A stretch of DNA of 64,000 nt from an uncultured SAR86 cluster bacterium. Its GTDB lineage: Bacteria > Pseudomonadota > Gammaproteobacteria > Magnimaribacterales > AG-339-G14. The stretch lies in the NCBI GenBank assembly GCA_902536295.1, contig CACAWS010000001.1, positions 43,452-107,451 of the forward strand. Direction: 5' to 3'. Of this stretch, positions 2,875 through 56,910 are shown one piece after another. The stretch's first letter is position 1; every line of letters starts with the position of its first letter. The position numbers were made by a program, and so were the translations under genes. The notes beneath the pieces are model-generated. The model had not been told where the DNA came from, made no database searches, and saw nothing but the letters and a program-made list of their open reading frames with translations.

Positions 2875-3756
2875 ATGAATGAAAAAATTATTCCAATTTT
2901 AGCAACTTGCATAGGTGGTTGCTTGATAGGACTAGCGCCAATTTTCGTTAGAGTTAGCGAAGTAGGGCCATCTTTTACCGGTCTTTATAGATTTATATTT
3001 GCAACTCTTCTAATTTTTATATTTGGAGTAGTTTCAAAAAAACTTAAATTTTTTAAATACAAACAATTATATTTAGTTGCTATACCTGGTTTATTTTTCG
3101 GAGTGGACATAACTCTTTGGCATTCATCTATCACCATGACTTCAGTCGCGAACGCTACGTTATTTGTTAATACAGCTCCTTTATATGTTTGTCTTTTTGC
3201 TTATATTTTGTTTAAAGAAAAACTAAGTTTTCTTTTTACAATTGCTTTAATGCTCTGTTCTGCAGGAATTATCATTCTGACTACCACAAATTCTTCTTTT
3301 GACGGGAGCTTATATTCTTTCGGTAACACGTTAGCGCTGCTGGGAGCTTTTTTTTATGCAGGATATTTATTTTCTATCTATAAGTTATCAACTCAGTTTG
3401 ATACATTCAATTTAATTTTTTATTCATGTTTGTTTGCTTGCATACCCATAGGTATAGGAAGCCTCTTTGAGATAGATAATCCATTTCCAAATTCATATCT
3501 AGGATGGATTAATTTCCTTGGTCAAGCTGTTTTTGTTCAGATTATGGGTCAGGGATTAGTAATTTATGGCCTTAGTCGAATCAAACCTCAAATTTCGTCT
3601 CTTCTTTTATTATTTCAACCTGTTTCCGCGACTATTTTGGGTATTTATTTTTTTTCTGAGACTTTATTAATAGGTCAATTTATTGGTGTTATTATTCTTC
3701 TTGTAGGTATTTATTTCGCAGGTTTAAGCGAAAGACTAAATAGAGGAAATTCATGA
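2875..3756 (+). CDS. EamA/DMT-superfamily transporter
   Basis: 293 aa and about 10 hydrophobic helices arranged as two EamA-like halves. 4-nt overlap with the next gene. Confidence 0.75.
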   Translation: MNEKIIPILATCIGGCLIGLAPIFVRVSEVGPSFTGLYRFIFATLLIFIFGVVSKKLKFFKYKQLYLVAIPGLFFGVDITLWHSSITMTSVANATLFVNTAPLYVCLFAYILFKEKLSFLFTIALMLCSAGIIILTTTNSSFDGSLYSFGNTLALLGAFFYAGYLFSIYKLSTQFDTFNLIFYSCLFACIPIGIGSLFEIDNPFPNSYLGWINFLGQAVFVQIMGQGLVIYGLSRIKPQISSLLLLFQPVSATILGIYFFSETLLIGQFIGVIILLVGIYFAGLSERLNRGNS

Positions 3757-7481: not shown

Positions 7482-9401
7482 TTAATCCAAAATAACCAAG
7501 GGCTCACCATTTTCGACTTGCTGATTTTTGGATACAAGAATATCTGAAACCTTTCCGTTATTTGGAGCTAGTACTTGGTGCTCCATCTTCATTGCCTCTA
7601 ATATCAATAAAGTATCTCCTTTCTTAATCTTCGACCCTTTTTTGATCTTTATTTCGACTACTTTACCAGGCATCGGAGCAGTTAAACTCCCTTCTGGAGC
7701 CTTTTCTTCTCTGACAGAAAATTTTGGTAAAATTTTAAATAACACATCGCCACTTTTAGTATTAATTAATATTAAGTCTTTTTCATAAGTAATTTTTGAT
7801 CTTAATCTTGAATTATCAATTTCTATATCTATGAAATTAGGAGCCCATGAGTGGATAATGGCTTTCTTTCCATCTGATATAGAAAAAGTATTGTCTCTAT
7901 TTCTTTTATATTTAATTAAAATTTTCTCGCCACTGTAATCAAAATTTACTTCTTGATTAGGTAAACGGGCATTGTTCCAGCCTGAAGCTAGATTTGACAA
8001 TACTTCTGAATCATTTCTATTTTTTCCTTGAACCCACATAGAAGCAGAAATTGCAGTCAATAATACTTCTTCCTTAGTTAAGTTGATTTCATCTTTGATG
8101 TTAGCCTGATTTAGGAAATCTGTAGTTGTGTTACCTTTTAAAAATTCTTCAGATCTTAAAATTGCTATAAGATAATCTCTATTAGTTTTTAGACCTCCAA
8201 AATGACTTTTTTCAAGTGCAAGAGCTAATTTATTTGCTGCTTCAATTCTATCCTCTCCATAGGAAATAATTTTTGCAAGCATGGGATCAAAATTAGGAGT
8301 AATTTCTGAACCGGATTCAACTCCAACGTCCCATCTCACTAAGGGTTCTTCACAGGGGTCAAAGGCAATTAATTTTCCTGTTACAGGCAAAAAATCATTT
8401 CCTGGATCTTCTGAATAAAGTCTTACTTCTATCGACGAACCTATAATTTCAACGTCATCTTGAGTAATACTCAGAGGGTCTCCGTTGGCAATTTTAAGTT
8501 GTTCTCGAACTAAATCAATTCCTGTCACTTCCTCAGTAACTGGGTGTTCAACCTGCAATCTCGTATTTACTTCAAGAAACCAAAATTCTTTTGTTTTTTC
8601 ATCAAACAGAAATTCAACAGTGCCAGCCGATTCATACTTTAGTAGTGAAGCCATTTTAATGGCAGCTTCTCCCATTTTGTTTCTTAAATCGTAATCAATG
8701 ATAGGGGAAGGAGATTCTTCAACAACCTTTTGATGACGTCGTTGAATGGAACATTCTCTCTCTCCTAAATGAATAATGTTTCCATGTGAATCTCCTAAAA
8801 TTTGAATCTCAATATGTCTTGATTTTGCTATATATCTCTCCAAAAAAACTCTTTTATCGCCAAATCCTCCCTCAGCTTCTCTTTCTGCAGAAGTAATTGC
8901 ATCTTTTAATTCTTTTTGTTTTCTAACAATTCTCATTCCTTTACCGCCGCCCCCAGCCGCAGCTTTTACTAAGATGGGGAAACCTATTTTGTCAGCATTT
9001 TTGGGATTATTAGTCATAGGTAAGGTGGGAACTCCAGCTTTTTCAGATAAAGTCTTCGCGATTAATTTATCTCCCATTTTTTTTATAGCATTAGCAGAAG
9101 GACCAACCCATTTTAAATTTGCTTTTTTTACTTGATTTGCAAAATTGTAATTCTCAGACAAGAATCCATATCCAGGATGAATTGCATCTACATTTGCCTT
9201 AGAAGCTATATTAAGAATTTCTTTTGAATCCAAATAAGAAGTCTCTAGTTTAAATGCTTCATTTGCTTGCCTGACATAAGGGGAGTTCGAATCAGGTTCA
9301 GTATATATAGCAACAGTAGCTATACCCATATCATGAGCTGAGCGAATAATTCTGCTTGCGATTTCGCCTCTATTTGCAATCAAAAGTTTTTTTATCGTCA
9401 T
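7482..9401 (-). CDS. Biotin-dependent acyl-CoA carboxylase alpha subunit (biotin carboxylase + BCCP; methylcrotonyl-/geranyl-CoA carboxylase type)
   Basis: 639 aa. 'LLIANRGEIA', ATP-grasp 'GGGGKGMR', 'EVNTRLQVEHPVTE', C-terminal biotinylation motif 'EAMKMEH'. Confidence 0.9.
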   Translation of the reverse strand: MTIKKLLIANRGEIASRIIRSAHDMGIATVAIYTEPDSNSPYVRQANEAFKLETSYLDSKEILNIASKANVDAIHPGYGFLSENYNFANQVKKANLKWVGPSANAIKKMGDKLIAKTLSEKAGVPTLPMTNNPKNADKIGFPILVKAAAGGGGKGMRIVRKQKELKDAITSAEREAEGGFGDKRVFLERYIAKSRHIEIQILGDSHGNIIHLGERECSIQRRHQKVVEESPSPIIDYDLRNKMGEAAIKMASLLKYESAGTVEFLFDEKTKEFWFLEVNTRLQVEHPVTEEVTGIDLVREQLKIANGDPLSITQDDVEIIGSSIEVRLYSEDPGNDFLPVTGKLIAFDPCEEPLVRWDVGVESGSEITPNFDPMLAKIISYGEDRIEAANKLALALEKSHFGGLKTNRDYLIAILRSEEFLKGNTTTDFLNQANIKDEINLTKEEVLLTAISASMWVQGKNRNDSEVLSNLASGWNNARLPNQEVNFDYSGEKILIKYKRNRDNTFSISDGKKAIIHSWAPNFIDIEIDNSRLRSKITYEKDLILINTKSGDVLFKILPKFSVREEKAPEGSLTAPMPGKVVEIKIKKGSKIKKGDTLLILEAMKMEHQVLAPNNGKVSDILVSKNQQVENGEPLVILD

Positions 9402-9459
9402 AATCTAAATACACCAAAACCTTTTTTATAGTCATAATCTAAATACACCAAAACCTTTT
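9397..9459. repeat. 34-bp tandem duplication (two 29-nt identical cores, 9397-9425 and 9431-9459) spanning the beta-stop/alpha-start junction
   Basis: 'gtcataatctaaatacaccaaaacctttt' occurs twice, 34 bp apart. The flanking 'ttttttat[c/a]' is also shared. Confidence 0.9.
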
Positions 9460-14364: not shown

Positions 14365-15165
14365 ATGAAAATAGATAAGTTATTCGATATCTCAGGAAAG
14401 GTCGCATTGGTTACAGGCGGCTCGAGAGGGATTGGAGAAATGATAGCAGCTGCTTTCTTAGCAAATGGAGTAAAAGTTTACATTTCAGCAAGGAAAGCCG
14501 ATCCATGCGATCAAAAAGCTGAAGAGCTTTCAAAAACCTTTGGTTCTGAATGTATTTCAATACCAGCAGACGTTGGTTCTATGGATGGAATAATTAAACT
14601 AACTGACGAAATTAAAGCAAGAGAAGATAATTTAGATTTTTTGATAAATAATGCTGGCGCAGCATGGGGCGAAAAAATTGACGATTTTTCTGAATCCGGC
14701 TGGGACAAGGTTATGGATTTAAATGTCAAAGGGATGTTTTTTACTACTCAAAAACTGTTGCCATTACTAAGACAAGCTGGATCTCTTGAAGTTCCATCAA
14801 AAGTAATTAATATTGGGTCTATTGATGGAATAAACACTCCCGCTTTTGAAAATTACGTTTACAGCGCTTCCAAAGCAGCTGTTCATCAATTGACTAGGCA
14901 TTTAGCTTCAAAGTTAGTAAGAGAAAATATTCTAGTGAATGCGATTGCTCCAGGCCCATTCCCAAGCAGAATGTTGGGGTCTGCAGTTGCCCATGATTTT
15001 AGTCCTCTTGAAGAGAGAAGTCCTGTGAAAAGGATTGGAACAATGGAAGATATTGGCGGTTTGGCTATTTATCTATGTTCTCGAGCTGGAAATTTTACAA
15101 TTGGAGAAACGATTACTTGTGACGGTGGGTTAACAGCTTGTTCAGGACATAATTTGTCAGTTTAA
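14365..15165 (+). CDS. Short-chain dehydrogenase/reductase (SDR)
   Basis: 266 aa. 'VTGGSRGIG' cofactor motif, 'NNAG', catalytic 'YSASKAA'. Confidence 0.85.
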   Translation: MKIDKLFDISGKVALVTGGSRGIGEMIAAAFLANGVKVYISARKADPCDQKAEELSKTFGSECISIPADVGSMDGIIKLTDEIKAREDNLDFLINNAGAAWGEKIDDFSESGWDKVMDLNVKGMFFTTQKLLPLLRQAGSLEVPSKVINIGSIDGINTPAFENYVYSASKAAVHQLTRHLASKLVRENILVNAIAPGPFPSRMLGSAVAHDFSPLEERSPVKRIGTMEDIGGLAIYLCSRAGNFTIGETITCDGGLTACSGHNLSV

Positions 15166-15194
15166 AAAAAATCCTGCCTCTATTGAGGCAGGAT
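15164..15194 (-). terminator. Intrinsic terminator; the U-tract is present only for the minus strand, though it could act bidirectionally
   Basis: Perfect 10-bp stem atcctgcctc/gaggcaggat (15171-15180 and 15185-15194) with a 4-nt loop. It is flanked at 15164-15170 by an A-run on the plus strand, which is a U-run after the hairpin on the minus strand. Confidence 0.7.
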
Positions 15195-15195
15195 T

Positions 15196-15370
15196 CCAAG
15201 ATAAAGTATCTCAACTTTTTTCTTTCTAAGAGCGGCCGAAGCGTCTCTTAGTCGGAATAGGGAAAACCCTAGTCAGGCGGTTCCCCCTGATATTCCTGTT
15301 AAATTGTTCGTATTAATTTTGGATCACCTCCTGTCAGGGATTGTTAAAATTAGCAACAATAGAGACCCTG
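15196..15370 (-). ncRNA. Unassigned GC-rich structured RNA candidate (orientation tentative)
   Basis: A chain of hand-folded hairpins in a locally GC-rich stretch between convergent genes. These are 15226-15251 (7-bp outer stem; apical cUUCGg when read on the minus strand), a three-way junction at 15254-15296, and 15335-15370 (CAGGG/CCCTG plus ATTGTT/AACAAT). It also contains 'ttggatcacctcct' at 15319-15332. Confidence 0.35.
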
Positions 15371-15434
15371 TTTTAAATTCTATCAATTGCGACTATTAAT
15401 AATATTCTACTACTTAAATGGATCCTTTCAATTA

Positions 15435-16874
15435 TCAAATTAACGTTGGAATAAAGAAATAAGCTAAAACAAATAAAAATACAATGCTTAATAAGTTAAT
15501 AATTATTCCAGCTTTCACCATTTTTTGAATCGGAATTAATCCTGATGCATAGACTATAGAATTTGGTGGAGTAGCAACTGGCAACATAAATGCACAGCTT
15601 GCTGACAAAGTAAGAGGTAATATTAATAACATCGGATCTATTCCTAAGTTGAGACCCACACTTGCCACAACAGGTAAAAAGGTAACTGTAGTTGTCAAAT
15701 TACTTGTTAATTCTGTTAAAAGAATCACCATTGTTATTACAATAAATAAAACAATAAAAAAATAAGTTTGAGAAGGTATGAGAGAAGCTAGCCATAAAGC
15801 TAATCCAGAGTCATTAACAACATAGGCTAAAGCCATCCCTCCGCCAAATAAAAATATTAGTCCCCAAGGAAAACCATTTTGAGCATCTTCCCAATTTAGA
15901 AGCTTCTCTTTCTTGTCCTTTCGATTTATAAAAAAAAGGGATAGACCACCTATCATTGCTATAACCGAATCATCTAGAAGAGATAACCCAGGTAAATCGT
16001 CTAATACTTGTCTAAAAATCCAACAAAATGCAGTGAAGGTAAATACTATTACTACTTTTTTTTCTTCATTTGTCATGGTTCCTAATTCGCTCAACATAGT
16101 TTCAAGCTCTGCTTTCGCATTAATTGAAGCTTCAAAATTCACAGGATATATAAATTTAGTTAGTAAATACCAAACTAAGGGACCCAAAATAATTGTTACT
16201 GGAAGCCCAAAAGCAATCCAATTTGCAAAACCAATGTCCTTGTTGAAGTTATCTCCAGCAAATTGAATGAGCACTCCATTTGGAGAGGTTCCAATTGGAG
16301 TAGCTATTCCTCCTAAAGAAGCGCTGTAGGCAATTCCTAGCAGTAAACACAATTGAAAATTATAAGATTGATTATCATCAATTTCTTTGACTGTATCTGT
16401 TATCACTTTAATCACGGAGATAGCGACTGGTAAAAGCATAATTGCAGTTGATGTATTCATTACCCACATGCTCAATAAAGCGCTGGCGAGCATGAATGAG
16501 GCAACTATACCATTAGCGTTCAATCCACTTAATCTTAAAATGTTTAAAGCGACTCTTTTATGAAGACCCCATTTTTGGATTGCAATAGCAATGATAAATC
16601 CGCCAGCAAATAAAAATTGAACTTTATTCATATACTCTTTACTGATAACACCAATTTCCACAACTCCTAATAAAGGGAAGAGTACTAATGGCATTAAAGC
16701 CGTGACCTGAAGTGGAAGAGCTTCAAAAGCCCACCAGATTCCCATTAAAGAAAATACAGCAAGAGTCAATCTTCCTTCTGTCGATAGACCAGTTGGGTTT
16801 TGAATAATCAAAATGAATATAAAGGAGATTAGACCTAACCAAAAACCTACAGACTTTATATTCCAAGAATTCAT
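15435..16874 (-). CDS. DASS/SLC13-family Na+-coupled anion (di/tricarboxylate or sulfate) symporter
   Basis: 479 aa polytopic membrane protein. Inverted-repeat architecture with 'SNxxTT' and 'ATPPN' hairpin-tip motifs ('LTSNLTTTV', 'PVATPPNSIV'). Confidence 0.8.
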   Translation of the reverse strand: MNSWNIKSVGFWLGLISFIFILIIQNPTGLSTEGRLTLAVFSLMGIWWAFEALPLQVTALMPLVLFPLLGVVEIGVISKEYMNKVQFLFAGGFIIAIAIQKWGLHKRVALNILRLSGLNANGIVASFMLASALLSMWVMNTSTAIMLLPVAISVIKVITDTVKEIDDNQSYNFQLCLLLGIAYSASLGGIATPIGTSPNGVLIQFAGDNFNKDIGFANWIAFGLPVTIILGPLVWYLLTKFIYPVNFEASINAKAELETMLSELGTMTNEEKKVVIVFTFTAFCWIFRQVLDDLPGLSLLDDSVIAMIGGLSLFFINRKDKKEKLLNWEDAQNGFPWGLIFLFGGGMALAYVVNDSGLALWLASLIPSQTYFFIVLFIVITMVILLTELTSNLTTTVTFLPVVASVGLNLGIDPMLLILPLTLSASCAFMLPVATPPNSIVYASGLIPIQKMVKAGIIINLLSIVFLFVLAYFFIPTLI

Positions 16875-24783: not shown

Positions 24784-24860
24784 GGTGGGCGTAGCTCAGT
24801 TGGTAGAGCGCTGGTTTGTGGTACCGGTTGTCGTGGGTTCGAGCCCCATCGTCCACCCCA
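24784..24860 (+). tRNA. tRNA-His (anticodon GUG)
   Basis: 77 nt including the His-specific extra 5' G(-1). Anticodon loop TTGTGGT, T-loop TTCGAGC, ends CCCCA as in E. coli tRNA-His. Confidence 0.9.
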
Positions 24861-24872
24861 ATTGGAGATAAA

Positions 24873-26168
24873 ATGTTTGGATTTGGAAAGAAAGAAAAAG
24901 TCAAAAAGCTTAAATTTAAAATTCTATCGAGTTTAATGACTGAGGAGTATCAAAAAAAACTATCTCAAGAACAAGCTTCTTCTGACTTGAAAGGTTATAG
25001 AAAAGGAAAAGCTCCTTTAGATGTTATTGAGAAGTTTTACGGTGAACAACTCAGAGCAAGAGTAATCTATGAAACAATGACTAACGAATTTTATAAAATC
25101 GTAACAGAAAAAAAGATATCTGTTGTTGGTCAGCCTGCACTAAACCCTTTATCTATGGATATCAGTAAAGATATAAATGTAGAAGCTTCATATGAAATTT
25201 ACCCTGAATTTGAGTTAAAGAAATTTTCAACATTGAAAATAAAGAAACCTATATGCGATTTAATGGATGAAGATATCAATAATACAGTTGAAAAAATGCA
25301 AACAAGGTTTGGAAAGCTTGACAAAGTAGAAAAAGAAATTGAAGAGGGTAATTTTGCAAAAATTAACTTTGAAGGGTTTTTGGATAATGAAAAATTCGAA
25401 GGTGGTACTGCTCAAGATTATCTTATAGAAATTGGGTCTAAGAATATGATTCCGGGTTTCGAGGAGGGTTTAATTGGATTAAAAAGTGGAGATAAAAAAG
25501 ACCTTAATTTAAATTTTCCAGATGACTATCATGCTGAAAATCTTAAGGGGAAAGAAACTTTATTTAAAATAGAAGTTATTGAGGTTTTAGAAACTAAACC
25601 TGCCGAGTTAAATGAAGATTTTTTTAATCAAGCAGGTATTCCATCAAAAACAGAAGAGGAATTTAAAAATAACCTGAAAGCTCAATTAGAAAGAGATCTT
25701 GAAATTACTGGGAAAAGGAAATTAAAAGAAAGAATATTTGATGCAATTGAACAACAAAATTCCTTTGAAATCCCCTCAGCAATGGTTTTGGCGGAAGCTA
25801 AAAATTTAAGAAACTCTTCAGCCCAACAAATGGGAATGGACCCAGCAAAACTCAAAGATGATGAATTTCCTTTAGAAACATTTGAAGAAAATGCTACGAA
25901 AAGAGTAAAACTTGGCGTTATTCTAAATAAAATAATTGAAGAGAGAAAAATTGAAAAAAATGATGACCTTATAAAGGAACTTATAGAAGAAAGAGCAACT
26001 GGATTTAAAGATCCTGAACAATACAAGCAGTGGATTTTTGGAAATCAAGAGCAGTTAAAAAACATTGAATCCATAGCCTTAGAAGAACAAGTGACTGAAC
26101 TCATTTCATCTGAAGCTAAATGCGAAATTGAGAAACTAAGTTTTGAAGAAATGATGTCAATGAGTTAA
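24873..26168 (+). CDS. tig: Trigger factor
   Basis: Start set at the ATG at 24873 (MFGFGKKEK...), downstream of tRNA-His. 'GYRKGKAP', FKBP-type block 'GGTAQDYLIEIGSKNMIPGFEEGLIGLKSGD', 'YHAENLKGKE'. Conserved position upstream of clpP-clpX-lon. Confidence 0.88.
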   Translation: MFGFGKKEKVKKLKFKILSSLMTEEYQKKLSQEQASSDLKGYRKGKAPLDVIEKFYGEQLRARVIYETMTNEFYKIVTEKKISVVGQPALNPLSMDISKDINVEASYEIYPEFELKKFSTLKIKKPICDLMDEDINNTVEKMQTRFGKLDKVEKEIEEGNFAKINFEGFLDNEKFEGGTAQDYLIEIGSKNMIPGFEEGLIGLKSGDKKDLNLNFPDDYHAENLKGKETLFKIEVIEVLETKPAELNEDFFNQAGIPSKTEEEFKNNLKAQLERDLEITGKRKLKERIFDAIEQQNSFEIPSAMVLAEAKNLRNSSAQQMGMDPAKLKDDEFPLETFEENATKRVKLGVILNKIIEERKIEKNDDLIKELIEERATGFKDPEQYKQWIFGNQEQLKNIESIALEEQVTELISSEAKCEIEKLSFEEMMSMS

Positions 26169-55146: not shown

Positions 55147-55222
<76 letters not shown>

Positions 55223-55489: not shown

Positions 55490-55682
55490 ATTAAAAATGT
55501 TTTTAGTTCAAAAATAGGATTTAAAGAAACATTTCAAAATATATTTGAAATTTTAACAGAATTTACAGTATTTACTGTTATCGGTTTTGTTATGTGGCTT
55601 GGAATAGGTTTTGGGTACTTATTATTGGAATTTATTATATTTTCGATTTTCTAGGCGTGATAGGGTCAGACACAAAGAGAAA

Positions 55683-55790
55683 CTAACCCTATCTAATCTG
55701 TCTAATCTACCTAATCTACCTAATCTATCTAATCTATCTAATCTACCTAATCTACCTAATCTATCTAATCTATCTAATCTATCTAATCTC
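55683..55790. repeat. 9-bp tandem repeat array (CTAATCTAY, 11 regular copies plus one degenerate) with 36-bp higher-order periodicity
   Basis: 'ctaatct' recurs every 9 bp from 55693 to 55789. The variable dinucleotide follows the pattern ac,ac,at,at,ac,ac,at,at,at. Confidence 0.9.
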
Positions 55791-55802
55791 CCAAACCACT
55801 GC

Positions 55803-55831
55803 TTGCATACTAAAAAATACGTAGCTAAAGT
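55803..55831 (+). promoter_or_regulatory. Promoter candidate for the 55862 cassette
   Basis: TTGCAT (55803-55808), a 17-nt spacer, then TAAAGT (55826-55831). A strong SD (AGGAGA, 55853-55858) precedes the ATG at 55862. The repeat array ends 13 bp upstream of the -35. Confidence 0.3.
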
Positions 55832-56569: not shown

Positions 56570-56808
56570 GTAAAGTAAATAATCCTTCGCACTATAAAAT
56601 TTCTCATCAAATGGCAGAGGTTATTTGGAAGTCATTGTATGAGTTGAGAGATAAAGAAAATGCCAAAGCTCTTTCTAAGTTAATGATTAATCAAGGATGT
56701 CAGGAAATAGAAGTTGAGGATATGTCTCTCATATTGGCTTTTTGGAAAGACTATATGGAAGATCATAATCTTTTATTTCTCAGTCTTGAAGAAATGGATT
56801 TTCATTAA
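56566..56808 (+). CDS. Small acidic hypothetical protein (80 aa), GTGA-coupled to the UDG-like gene
   Basis: GTG start overlapping the upstream TGA. The N-terminal 'VNNPSHYK' is reminiscent of the phage DUF3310 'HPSHY' opening (weak). The C-terminal half is strongly acidic ('QEIEVEDMS...YMEDHNLLFLSLEEMDFH'). Confidence 0.4.
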   Translation: MSKVNNPSHYKISHQMAEVIWKSLYELRDKENAKALSKLMINQGCQEIEVEDMSLILAFWKDYMEDHNLLFLSLEEMDFH

Positions 56809-56910
56809 TTTATATAAAAGTATAAAAGTAACTTTTGAAGTAAAGAGGCATATGAAGAGAGAATTAAGAAAAATTTTGGATCCCTACTTTAAAAACCAGT
56901 AGGTAAATTA

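Follow-up and report, generated by a model that had tools for sequence, protein, structure and literature searches.

The 269-bp intergenic gap at positions 15166-15434 of the window, the 64,000-nucleotide stretch of DNA from an uncultured SAR86 bacterium analyzed here (contig CACAWS010000001.1), lies between two convergent genes: an SDR gene on the plus strand (14365-15165) and a DASS transporter gene on the minus strand (15435-16874). Of the bacterial groups that remain uncultured, SAR86 is one of the most abundant in the surface ocean; its genome is small, and few of its regulators are known. Judged from its transcription signals, fold and conservation, the gap holds one independently transcribed, structured small RNA (sRNA) gene of SAR86, located on the minus strand. 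The wider neighborhood comprises panD, an OYE-type flavin oxidoreductase gene and the SDR gene on the plus strand, and the DASS gene on the minus strand, followed by gpsA.

The first-pass annotation of the window described this gap as much more GC-rich than its surroundings. The G+C content of the gap (0.42-0.46) does exceed the window mean of 0.33 (33%), but the rise is modest, and some coding stretches are equally high. The sequence features listed in that annotation are all present where it placed them, although its inventory lacked a promoter and one further hairpin (H5, 15224-15198), both described below.

Boundaries and strand of the RNA gene

A consensus scan predicts a sigma-70 promoter on the minus strand at 15404-15431, with a −35 element TTGAAA (15431-15426), a 16-nucleotide spacer and a −10 element TAGAAT (15409-15404). 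It overlaps the last codons, the stop codon and the 3′ flank of the DASS gene. In a comparison of 37 homologous loci, the −10 and −35 regions keep their TAnnAT positions and ATTG, respectively, without exception, and the flanks vary; conservation restarts 11-12 nucleotides downstream of the −10 element, at GUCGC. At the other end lies an intrinsic terminator (15164-15195, minus strand), whose stem pairs 15195-15185 with 15180-15170 and is followed by a run of eight U residues (15171-15164). The pattern scan that gave the promoter did not list this hairpin, which was read directly from the sequence. It corresponds to the terminator hairpin proposed in the first-pass annotation (here 15170-15195), and its eight-base run is a U-tract on the minus strand only. 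Every copy of the element ends at the same place in a GC-rich hairpin followed by 6-9 U residues (mostly 7-8), with differing stem sequences. The SDR gene on the opposite strand has no U-tract terminator of its own, and its stop codon abuts the sRNA terminator hairpin (15163-15195). It is possible that this hairpin serves both the SDR gene and the sRNA.

Both strands of the gap fold better than shuffled sequences, with z-scores of −4.4 for the minus strand and −3.8 for the plus strand. We assign the RNA to the minus strand because of the predicted conserved promoter, the U-tract and the marked asymmetry of G·U pairs: a minus-strand reading gives 78 G·U cells in the proposed helices and a plus-strand reading gives 10, and the paired cells amount to 91.5% and 85.9%, respectively. 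The same three observations bear out the earlier proposal of a discrete minus-strand sRNA and lead us to reject its companion, a plus-strand copy of the 16S rRNA tail acting as a mimic of the anti-Shine-Dalgarno sequence. The transcript would be about 230 nucleotides long, running from a start that we place near 15397 to 15164. Its own promoter and its own intrinsic terminator are conserved as a unit across three gene contexts, as expected from the sequence of an independent sRNA gene.

The same boundaries bear on a cis-acting role, in which the element would be a terminator or 3′ untranslated region (3′UTR) shared with the DASS gene, or a leader-peptide attenuator controlling read-through. 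A 14-codon frame (see below) followed by hairpins and a terminator is superficially trpL-like, and weak Rfam matches to leader families were obtained, although these concern the terminator only. We find this role barely credible, given that the element has a conserved promoter of its own and, in other clades, follows unrelated genes. In the window and in the main-clade loci inspected, moreover, the next gene is convergent, so that no same-strand operon follows there. The frame contains no run of regulatory codons, no conserved antiterminator pairing was seen by inspection, and the terminator stems differ between clades.

Conservation and fold

The DASS protein is 84-89% identical to its counterparts in SAR86 single-cell genomes and metagenome-assembled genomes and 61-67% identical to those of more distant SAR86 lineages. 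A low-GC Firmicutes origin of the DNA was rejected, the organism being SAR86. Among the loci recovered through this protein, all 36 from SAR86 carry the element immediately after the DASS gene, as shown by blastn, and the two non-SAR86 loci lack it. A pattern scan added about 41 further copies in marine metagenome contigs; this pattern imposed invariance on the Shine-Dalgarno (SD) sequence, on CAGGAAU and on AUUCCG, so only the 36 protein-anchored loci are unbiased in these respects. Two divergent types, represented by loci L048/L073/L097 and L052/L085, came from the metagenomes, and there the gene upstream of the element is not DASS but encodes a beta-lactamase-like protein or a TonB-dependent receptor. 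The element is therefore found downstream of three different genes, always behind a gene on the same strand. Its core is better conserved than the adjacent transporter gene, the nucleotide identities in three comparisons being 93 vs 78%, 75 vs 63% and 71 vs 66%.

When a covariance model built on the core was run against the 64-kb window and 657 kb of loci, each locus yielded a single strong match (100-154 bits) and no additional copy turned up; no repeat family of the window includes the element. A mobile intergenic element of the REP or MITE type, or a member of repeat families such as bcr and STAR, was accordingly ruled out, as the element is single-copy in the sequences searched. The first-pass annotation could match the element to no known family, and the Rfam scans agree with this. 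A scan of the whole window against Rfam 15 returned only six tRNAs, with no family reaching its gathering threshold over the element, and permissive scans of the window's own copy and two divergent copies gave at most 29 bits against thresholds of 35-115. These weak matches are driven by the terminator and differ between copies. 6S RNA, SRP RNA, tmRNA, riboswitches, CsrB/Rsm RNAs, IMES and ribosomal protein leaders likewise had no Rfam support in the three copies. The RNA thus apparently represents a conserved, undescribed family; an sRNA with a mini-frame and an extended-SD/AUU site is of a known kind, and the combination appears to be new.

The pattern scan also returned other sequences. Three matches on viral contigs were discarded, their span lengths of 76 and 81 nucleotides being those of unrelated matches. 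Three unrelated, AT-rich loci (L053, around 3138-3218; L058, 769-849; L084, 261-341) carry a separate conserved element caught by the same pattern. This element comprises AGGAGGTGATC...CTTGAC...GCAGGAATAG, CTATAAA repeats, ATTCCG and a terminator-like hairpin; the match on L098 has the same span length.

From 5′ to 3′, the RNA consists of a hairpin or pseudoknot domain, the SD sequence, a spacer, a frame opened by AUU, a three-way junction, two covarying hairpins and the terminator. Covariation was evaluated for five helices on a MAFFT alignment of 34 distinct cores (A2) made independently of the structure. A second, model-fitted alignment (A3) contains six chance matches and was set aside for this purpose. 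Helix cells are paired in 91.5% of cases, compared with 40-53% once the partners are slid. Both partners have changed in 18 pairs, and none of 500 shuffles reaches the covariation score. The helices that the first-pass annotation wished to see checked in homologous loci do, therefore, covary. Most of the compensatory changes sit in the two hairpins upstream of the terminator. In hairpin H4 (15226-15251, minus strand), both-sided changes occur in 9 of 10 pairs; its apex is the cUUCGg loop recognized earlier, and an internal C·C mismatch is conserved in the main clades. Hairpin H5 (15198-15224, minus strand) has a conserved UGA(G/A)AU loop and both-sided changes in 8 of 10 pairs, for example AAGA/UCUU to AGAGGA/UCCUCU to UGAGAAG/CUUCUCA.

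The three-way junction (15254-15296, minus strand) also has the form first proposed, a GGAAU/AUUCC helix (P1, 15296-15292 with 15258-15254) enclosing two hairpins, P2 (15290-15273) and P3 (15270-15259). P1 never varies and therefore gives no covariation evidence in either direction, whereas P2 changes only between G-C and G·U, and P3 switches from A-U to C-G between clades.

The 5′ domain begins with GUC (15393-15391, minus strand), followed by the hairpin P0, in which 15390-15379 pairs with 15363-15353. P0 forms at the same position in all 27 distinct 5′ domains despite differing sequences, its variants including GCAAUUUAAGA/UCUUAAAUUGC, GUAUUUGUGAA/UUCAUAAAUAC and GCACUUAGG/CCUA..AGUGC. Its apical loop holds CAGGG (15370-15366), which probably pairs with CCCUG (15339-15335) to form the stem of an H-type pseudoknot ending two nucleotides before the SD sequence. 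Both pentamers are conserved, with a C-G pair replaced by A-U in L048/L073 and by G·U in L052/L085. This is a single compensatory event, and a nested hairpin is the alternative to the pseudoknot. The first-pass annotation had drawn the CAGGG/CCCUG pairing as a separate hairpin at 15335-15370; the pairing probably stands, but it belongs to the 5′ domain, whose main helix P0 had been missed. Between this domain and the three-way junction lie about 40 nucleotides with no covariation-supported helix.

The Shine-Dalgarno sequence and the AUU frame

This one long stretch free of supported helices contains the complement of the 16S rRNA tail, as the first-pass annotation had pointed out. The extended SD sequence AGGAGGUGAUC occupies 15322-15332 on the minus strand and in this genome reaches 15319, giving a 14-mer (TTGGATCACCTCCT at 15319-15332). 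The window contains the 14-mer AGGAGGTGATCCAA a single time and none of 100 shuffles contains it; the two strands of the 64 kb have no longer complement to the anti-SD sequence. Its 11-nucleotide conserved part is AGGAGGUG(A/G)UC, and AGGAGGTG[A/G]TC is present in 36 of 36 SAR86 loci of the protein-anchored set. The SD sequence exactly complements the single-stranded 16S tail, whose sequence was confirmed from E. coli 16S rRNA, and the complementary positions are presumably 1530-1540 in E. coli numbering. The sole substitution within the SD sequence, A to G, still allows a G·U pair with U1532. The conserved part ends at the border of helix 45: the next base varies between C and A, and its pairing would need invasion of that helix.

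The duplex of the SD sequence with the tail GAUCACCUCCUUA has a calculated energy of −19.6 to −22.6 kcal/mol in all six sequence types, whereas the gene start regions of the window (n = 51) give a median of −2.4 and a best value of −12.2 kcal/mol. Among the 52 open reading frames (ORFs) of at least 100 residues in the window, 8 have an SD match of at least 5 nucleotides and 25 have no match longer than 3. SAR86 thus appears, from these sequences, to be an SD-poor gammaproteobacterium. Further pairing with ribosomal RNA was also considered. Against E. coli 16S, 23S and 5S rRNA, the unpaired stretch reached just −7 to −17 kcal/mol, and did so at sites that were not the same from clade to clade, and the likeness of GGGGAACC to the loop of 16S helix 45 is confined to the window's own clade; both were dismissed.

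The exact fit to the 16S tail is informative for a different function, that of a trans-acting sRNA that pairs with messages through the unpaired stretch AGGAGGUGAUC...AAAUUARUAUUAAC..UUANCAGGAAU as its seed, its likeness to a ribosome-binding site being incidental or merely stabilizing. A target would then have to mimic the 16S tail over 11 nucleotides, and both the conservation boundary and the G·U-compatible substitution match the tail itself. None of the 51 start regions of the window offered a convincing target, and we consider this function doubtful, even though several features are compatible with it. The unpaired region is conserved nucleotide by nucleotide, without codon periodicity, and the element lies downstream of a same-strand gene in all three contexts, like many 3′UTR-type sRNAs. 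Hfq-type sRNAs have strong U-tract terminators, and the strong terminator with 6-9 U residues found here resembles them. The best target match, upstream of an ORF without Pfam domains, rests on the palindrome GGAUCC and was rejected. An unusually long gap of 340 nucleotides (56570-56910) between two Pfam-less ORFs contains AAUUUUGGAUCC, which complements GGAUCCAAAAUU of the sRNA; this complementarity is probably due to chance, GGAUCC being palindromic.

The SD sequence also contains the first of two conserved CAGGA motifs, CAGGAGG and CAGGAAU, about 37 nucleotides apart. The repeat of CsrB is CAGGA(U/C/A)G, and the RNA could in principle be a protein sponge of the CsrB/Rsm type that titrates a CsrA-like regulator through CAGGA(N)G motifs. 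We regard this as very unlikely. There are only two conserved GGA motifs, the second of which is base-paired in the invariant P1, and CsrA binding leaves the conserved GUGAUC extension unexplained; in addition, no Rfam match to CsrB, CsrC or RsmX/Y/Z was obtained. A tblastn search for CsrA, Hfq, ProQ and IF3 genes found none in about 715 kb, which represents mostly one locus and is uninformative for whole genomes.

Downstream of the SD sequence, the minus strand carries a mini-frame (15273-15317) that opens with AUU (15317-15315), runs for 14 codons (INTNNLTGISGGTA) and ends with UGA (15275-15273) followed by C. The spacer between the SD sequence and AUU measures 3-4 nucleotides, and AUU lies 8-9 nucleotides after GGAGG. 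The AUU, its spacing, the 14-codon length and the UGA-C are invariant across the six sequence types. At the DNA level, ATTA, the 45-nucleotide length and TGAC are invariant, and all 18 distinct versions are free of indels and internal stops; the indels that do exist fall in two places outside the frame, the A-run ahead of AUU and the part of P3 that directly follows UGA. No lineage replaces AUU by AUG. This arrangement, present in all copies, agrees at the sequence level with infC-type sites, which are defined by a conserved AUU, AUA or AUC at 5-10 nucleotides from an extended SD sequence. The first-pass annotation described the AUU and its 14 codons correctly, but its implication that they are irrelevant does not hold, since the frame is conserved in every relative. 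The frame also overlaps the fold: codons 8-14 and the stop lie within P1 and P2, with codons 10-14 and the stop in P2.

Whether the 14-residue peptide itself is functional, with the RNA structure merely tuning its expression, can be judged from the same frame. It is intact in the 18 distinct versions, some replacements in its consensus I-[NS]-[IT]-N-x-L-[AST]-G-I-[SAT]-G-x-[AT]-x are conservative (T/S/A, I/M, N/S), and functional peptides of 14-15 residues are known from sRNAs. On the other hand, positions 5, 12 and 14 accept chemically unrelated residues, and there is neither a synonymous excess nor a preference for the frame in an RNAcode-like score (0.50 in frame 0, 0.51 in frame 1 and 0.31 in frame 2, with low power at 14 codons). 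A peptide gene would need neither H4 nor H5, which covary beyond the stop codon, and AUU is never exchanged for AUG. These sequence features argue against the peptide as the main product, and a micro-protein gene seems improbable to us. Three special readings of the frame were also rejected. Selenocysteine insertion or read-through is at odds with the distance from UGA to AUUCCG, which differs by 1-2 nucleotides between clades, so that the downstream phase is not conserved. For an RF2-type +1 frameshift at CAGGGGG...UGA-C, the last sense codons (GCC, AUC, UCU and UUC) do not favor slippage, and a stop codon follows immediately in the +1 frame. The resemblance of ..ELAGISGG.. to a double-glycine leader concerns a peptide that is too short, is variable at position 12 and lacks peptide selection.

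The lack of peptide-level selection would suit an untranslated RNA that binds the 16S tail, fills the mRNA channel of the 30S subunit and rarely or never initiates. As a mimic of an mRNA start, such an RNA would keep initiation stalled at the weak AUU and would sequester 30S subunits or park idle ribosomes, thereby shifting the balance between SD-led and SD-less mRNAs or acting as an RNA stand-in for a hibernation factor. The SD duplex of about −20 kcal/mol, far beyond that of any gene in this SD-poor window, is in line with such a role, as are the weak codon at the start position, with AUG in no lineage, and the free segment, which is held between two stable domains and is roughly as long as the mRNA footprint of a 30S subunit. 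We nevertheless judge an untranslated sponge unlikely. Genuine non-canonical initiation sites have just this appearance, an extended SD sequence with a conserved AUU at the ideal distance, and the frame and its UGA stop, which a pure sponge would not need, stay intact. Moreover, we know of no precedent for such an RNA, and a literature search yielded none.

Elsewhere in the window, about 15 copies of a 9-nucleotide unit, CTA(T/C)CTAAT, form a tandem array at 55680-55814, downstream of a tRNA gene (55147-55219), and where two minus-strand genes meet (9381-9448), a 34-nucleotide sequence is directly duplicated in tandem, with 91% identity. The mechanically assigned TTG start of a 450-residue ORF (24816-26168) overlaps a tRNA gene (24785-24857), and its real start must be further downstream. 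This ORF precedes ORFs of 200, 421 and 794 residues; as a guess from these sizes, it is probably trigger factor, followed by clpP, clpX and lon.

A proposed ribosome-engaging RNA and its known counterparts

We tentatively favor a plausible reading in which the RNA is a ribosome-engaging sRNA: the SD/AUU site would be real, and its occupancy would matter more than the peptide. The free segment of about 40 nucleotides would display an 11-13 bp complement of the 16S tail, the spacer, AUU and 21 A/U-rich bases. A 30S subunit would dock on this exposed center, between the 5′ hairpin/pseudoknot and the three-way junction, and would initiate at AUU inefficiently and in a manner sensitive to initiation factor 3 (IF3). 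To translate the frame, a ribosome would need to open the junction, whose helices P1 and P2 contain codons 8-14 and the stop. How active or stable the RNA is would then be set by ribosome occupancy, with the peptide probably of little importance in itself.

Several observations weigh against the ribosome-engaging reading. In 6 of 10 representatives, the SD sequence is bound by the C-rich 3′ strand of P2 in the minimum-energy fold, and its predicted unpaired probability is 0.01-0.47; exposure of the SD sequence may therefore be conditional, or the RNA may switch between folds. The 16S 3′ end taken for SAR86, GAUCACCUCCU, is the E. coli tail and may differ from that of SAR86 itself, no 16S sequence having been found in the loci collected, and the invariance of the SD sequence in the metagenome copies is a product of the search pattern. 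The frame carries no coding signature, its variable sites being distributed 7:6:8 over the codon positions in the 18 versions. Several third positions are invariant although the neighboring protein is 61-66% identical between lineages, which points to a dominant constraint on the RNA, one that contacts within the ribosomal channel would not explain. The integrity of the frame could also be explained by structure, its 3′ half lying in P1 and P2, together with a linker of constrained length. The sequences show the gene boundaries, strand, conservation, helices, SD complementarity and intact frame of the RNA; it is from these that we infer 30S binding, initiation at AUU, structural remodeling and any downstream regulatory output.

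The significance of this single-copy RNA gene lies in its being better conserved than its protein-coding neighbor while combining the strongest possible SD sequence with a weak start codon, a pairing that points to regulation at the level of the ribosome. If translated, it would offer an unusually compact and well-conserved extended-SD/AUU site outside a protein gene, and a natural probe for IF3-dependent start selection in an SD-poor organism. If untranslated, it would be the first RNA known to us that targets the anti-SD tail in trans. In either case, it provides a defined 230-nucleotide construct for 30S binding, toeprinting and structural work, and the new family can be used to annotate marine metagenomes and metatranscriptomes.

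Comparison with known systems informs our preference, since both extended-SD/AUU sites and sRNAs with frames of 14-15 codons are documented. More distant parallels exist as well. STAB-SD elements (Bacillus, cryIIIA type) are SD-like sequences at the 5′ end of long mRNAs, which they protect. As in those elements, the SD-like sequence of the SAR86 RNA may chiefly bind the 16S tail rather than make protein; the SAR86 RNA, in contrast, has no downstream message and carries a start-like codon and a frame at ideal spacing. CsrB, RsmY and RsmZ are likewise independent, terminated sRNAs that show GGA motifs resembling ribosome-binding sites. The SAR86 RNA differs from them in having two such motifs, one of them paired, in a complementarity that runs past GGA into the 16S tail, and in lacking an Rfam match. 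The parallel with 6S RNA is one of concept only, as the two share no structural or sequence similarity. If the sponge were true, a mimic of an mRNA start would hold the 30S subunit as 6S RNA holds RNA polymerase, and this oligotrophic, streamlined bacterium would possess an equivalent of 6S RNA for the ribosome.

For SAR86 itself, an abundant non-coding RNA in a glycolysis/pentose-phosphate locus has been described from the metatranscriptomes of Shi et al. 2009 (Dupont et al. 2012, PMC3358033). It comes from the same group of organisms and shows that SAR86 expresses abundant small RNAs. We reject an identity of the two RNAs because of their different locations, the present locus being that of DASS, panD, OYE and SDR.

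The closest parallels concern the frame and its start. Spot 42 encodes SpfP (15 residues, UGA stop) and rnTrpL encodes peTrpL (14 residues). Like the SAR86 RNA, these are short, independent or terminated transcripts with an SD sequence and about 14-15 codons, in which the frame overlaps structured or functional RNA. The SAR86 RNA is unrelated to them in sequence and in Rfam, opens with AUU instead of AUG, has an SD complementarity of 11-13 nucleotides and, unlike them, shows neither a known base-pairing target nor a sign of selection on the peptide.

In S. aureus, the conserved AUU or AUA starts of infC, cvfC1 and ccpN all have strong extended SD sequences; such starts give about 10% of the expression obtained with AUG and are linked to IF3, and the extended SD sequence aids recognition of the weak codon (PMC13009471). 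The SAR86 RNA shares with these sites a weak start and a very strong extended SD sequence at proper spacing, conserved together, and by analogy low, IF3-sensitive initiation would be expected in both. The infC-type sites head protein genes of at least 61 residues, whereas the SAR86 site heads 14 codons without a coding signature. It further differs from them in being located inside a self-contained, structured sRNA, in a genome whose genes are mostly SD-less.

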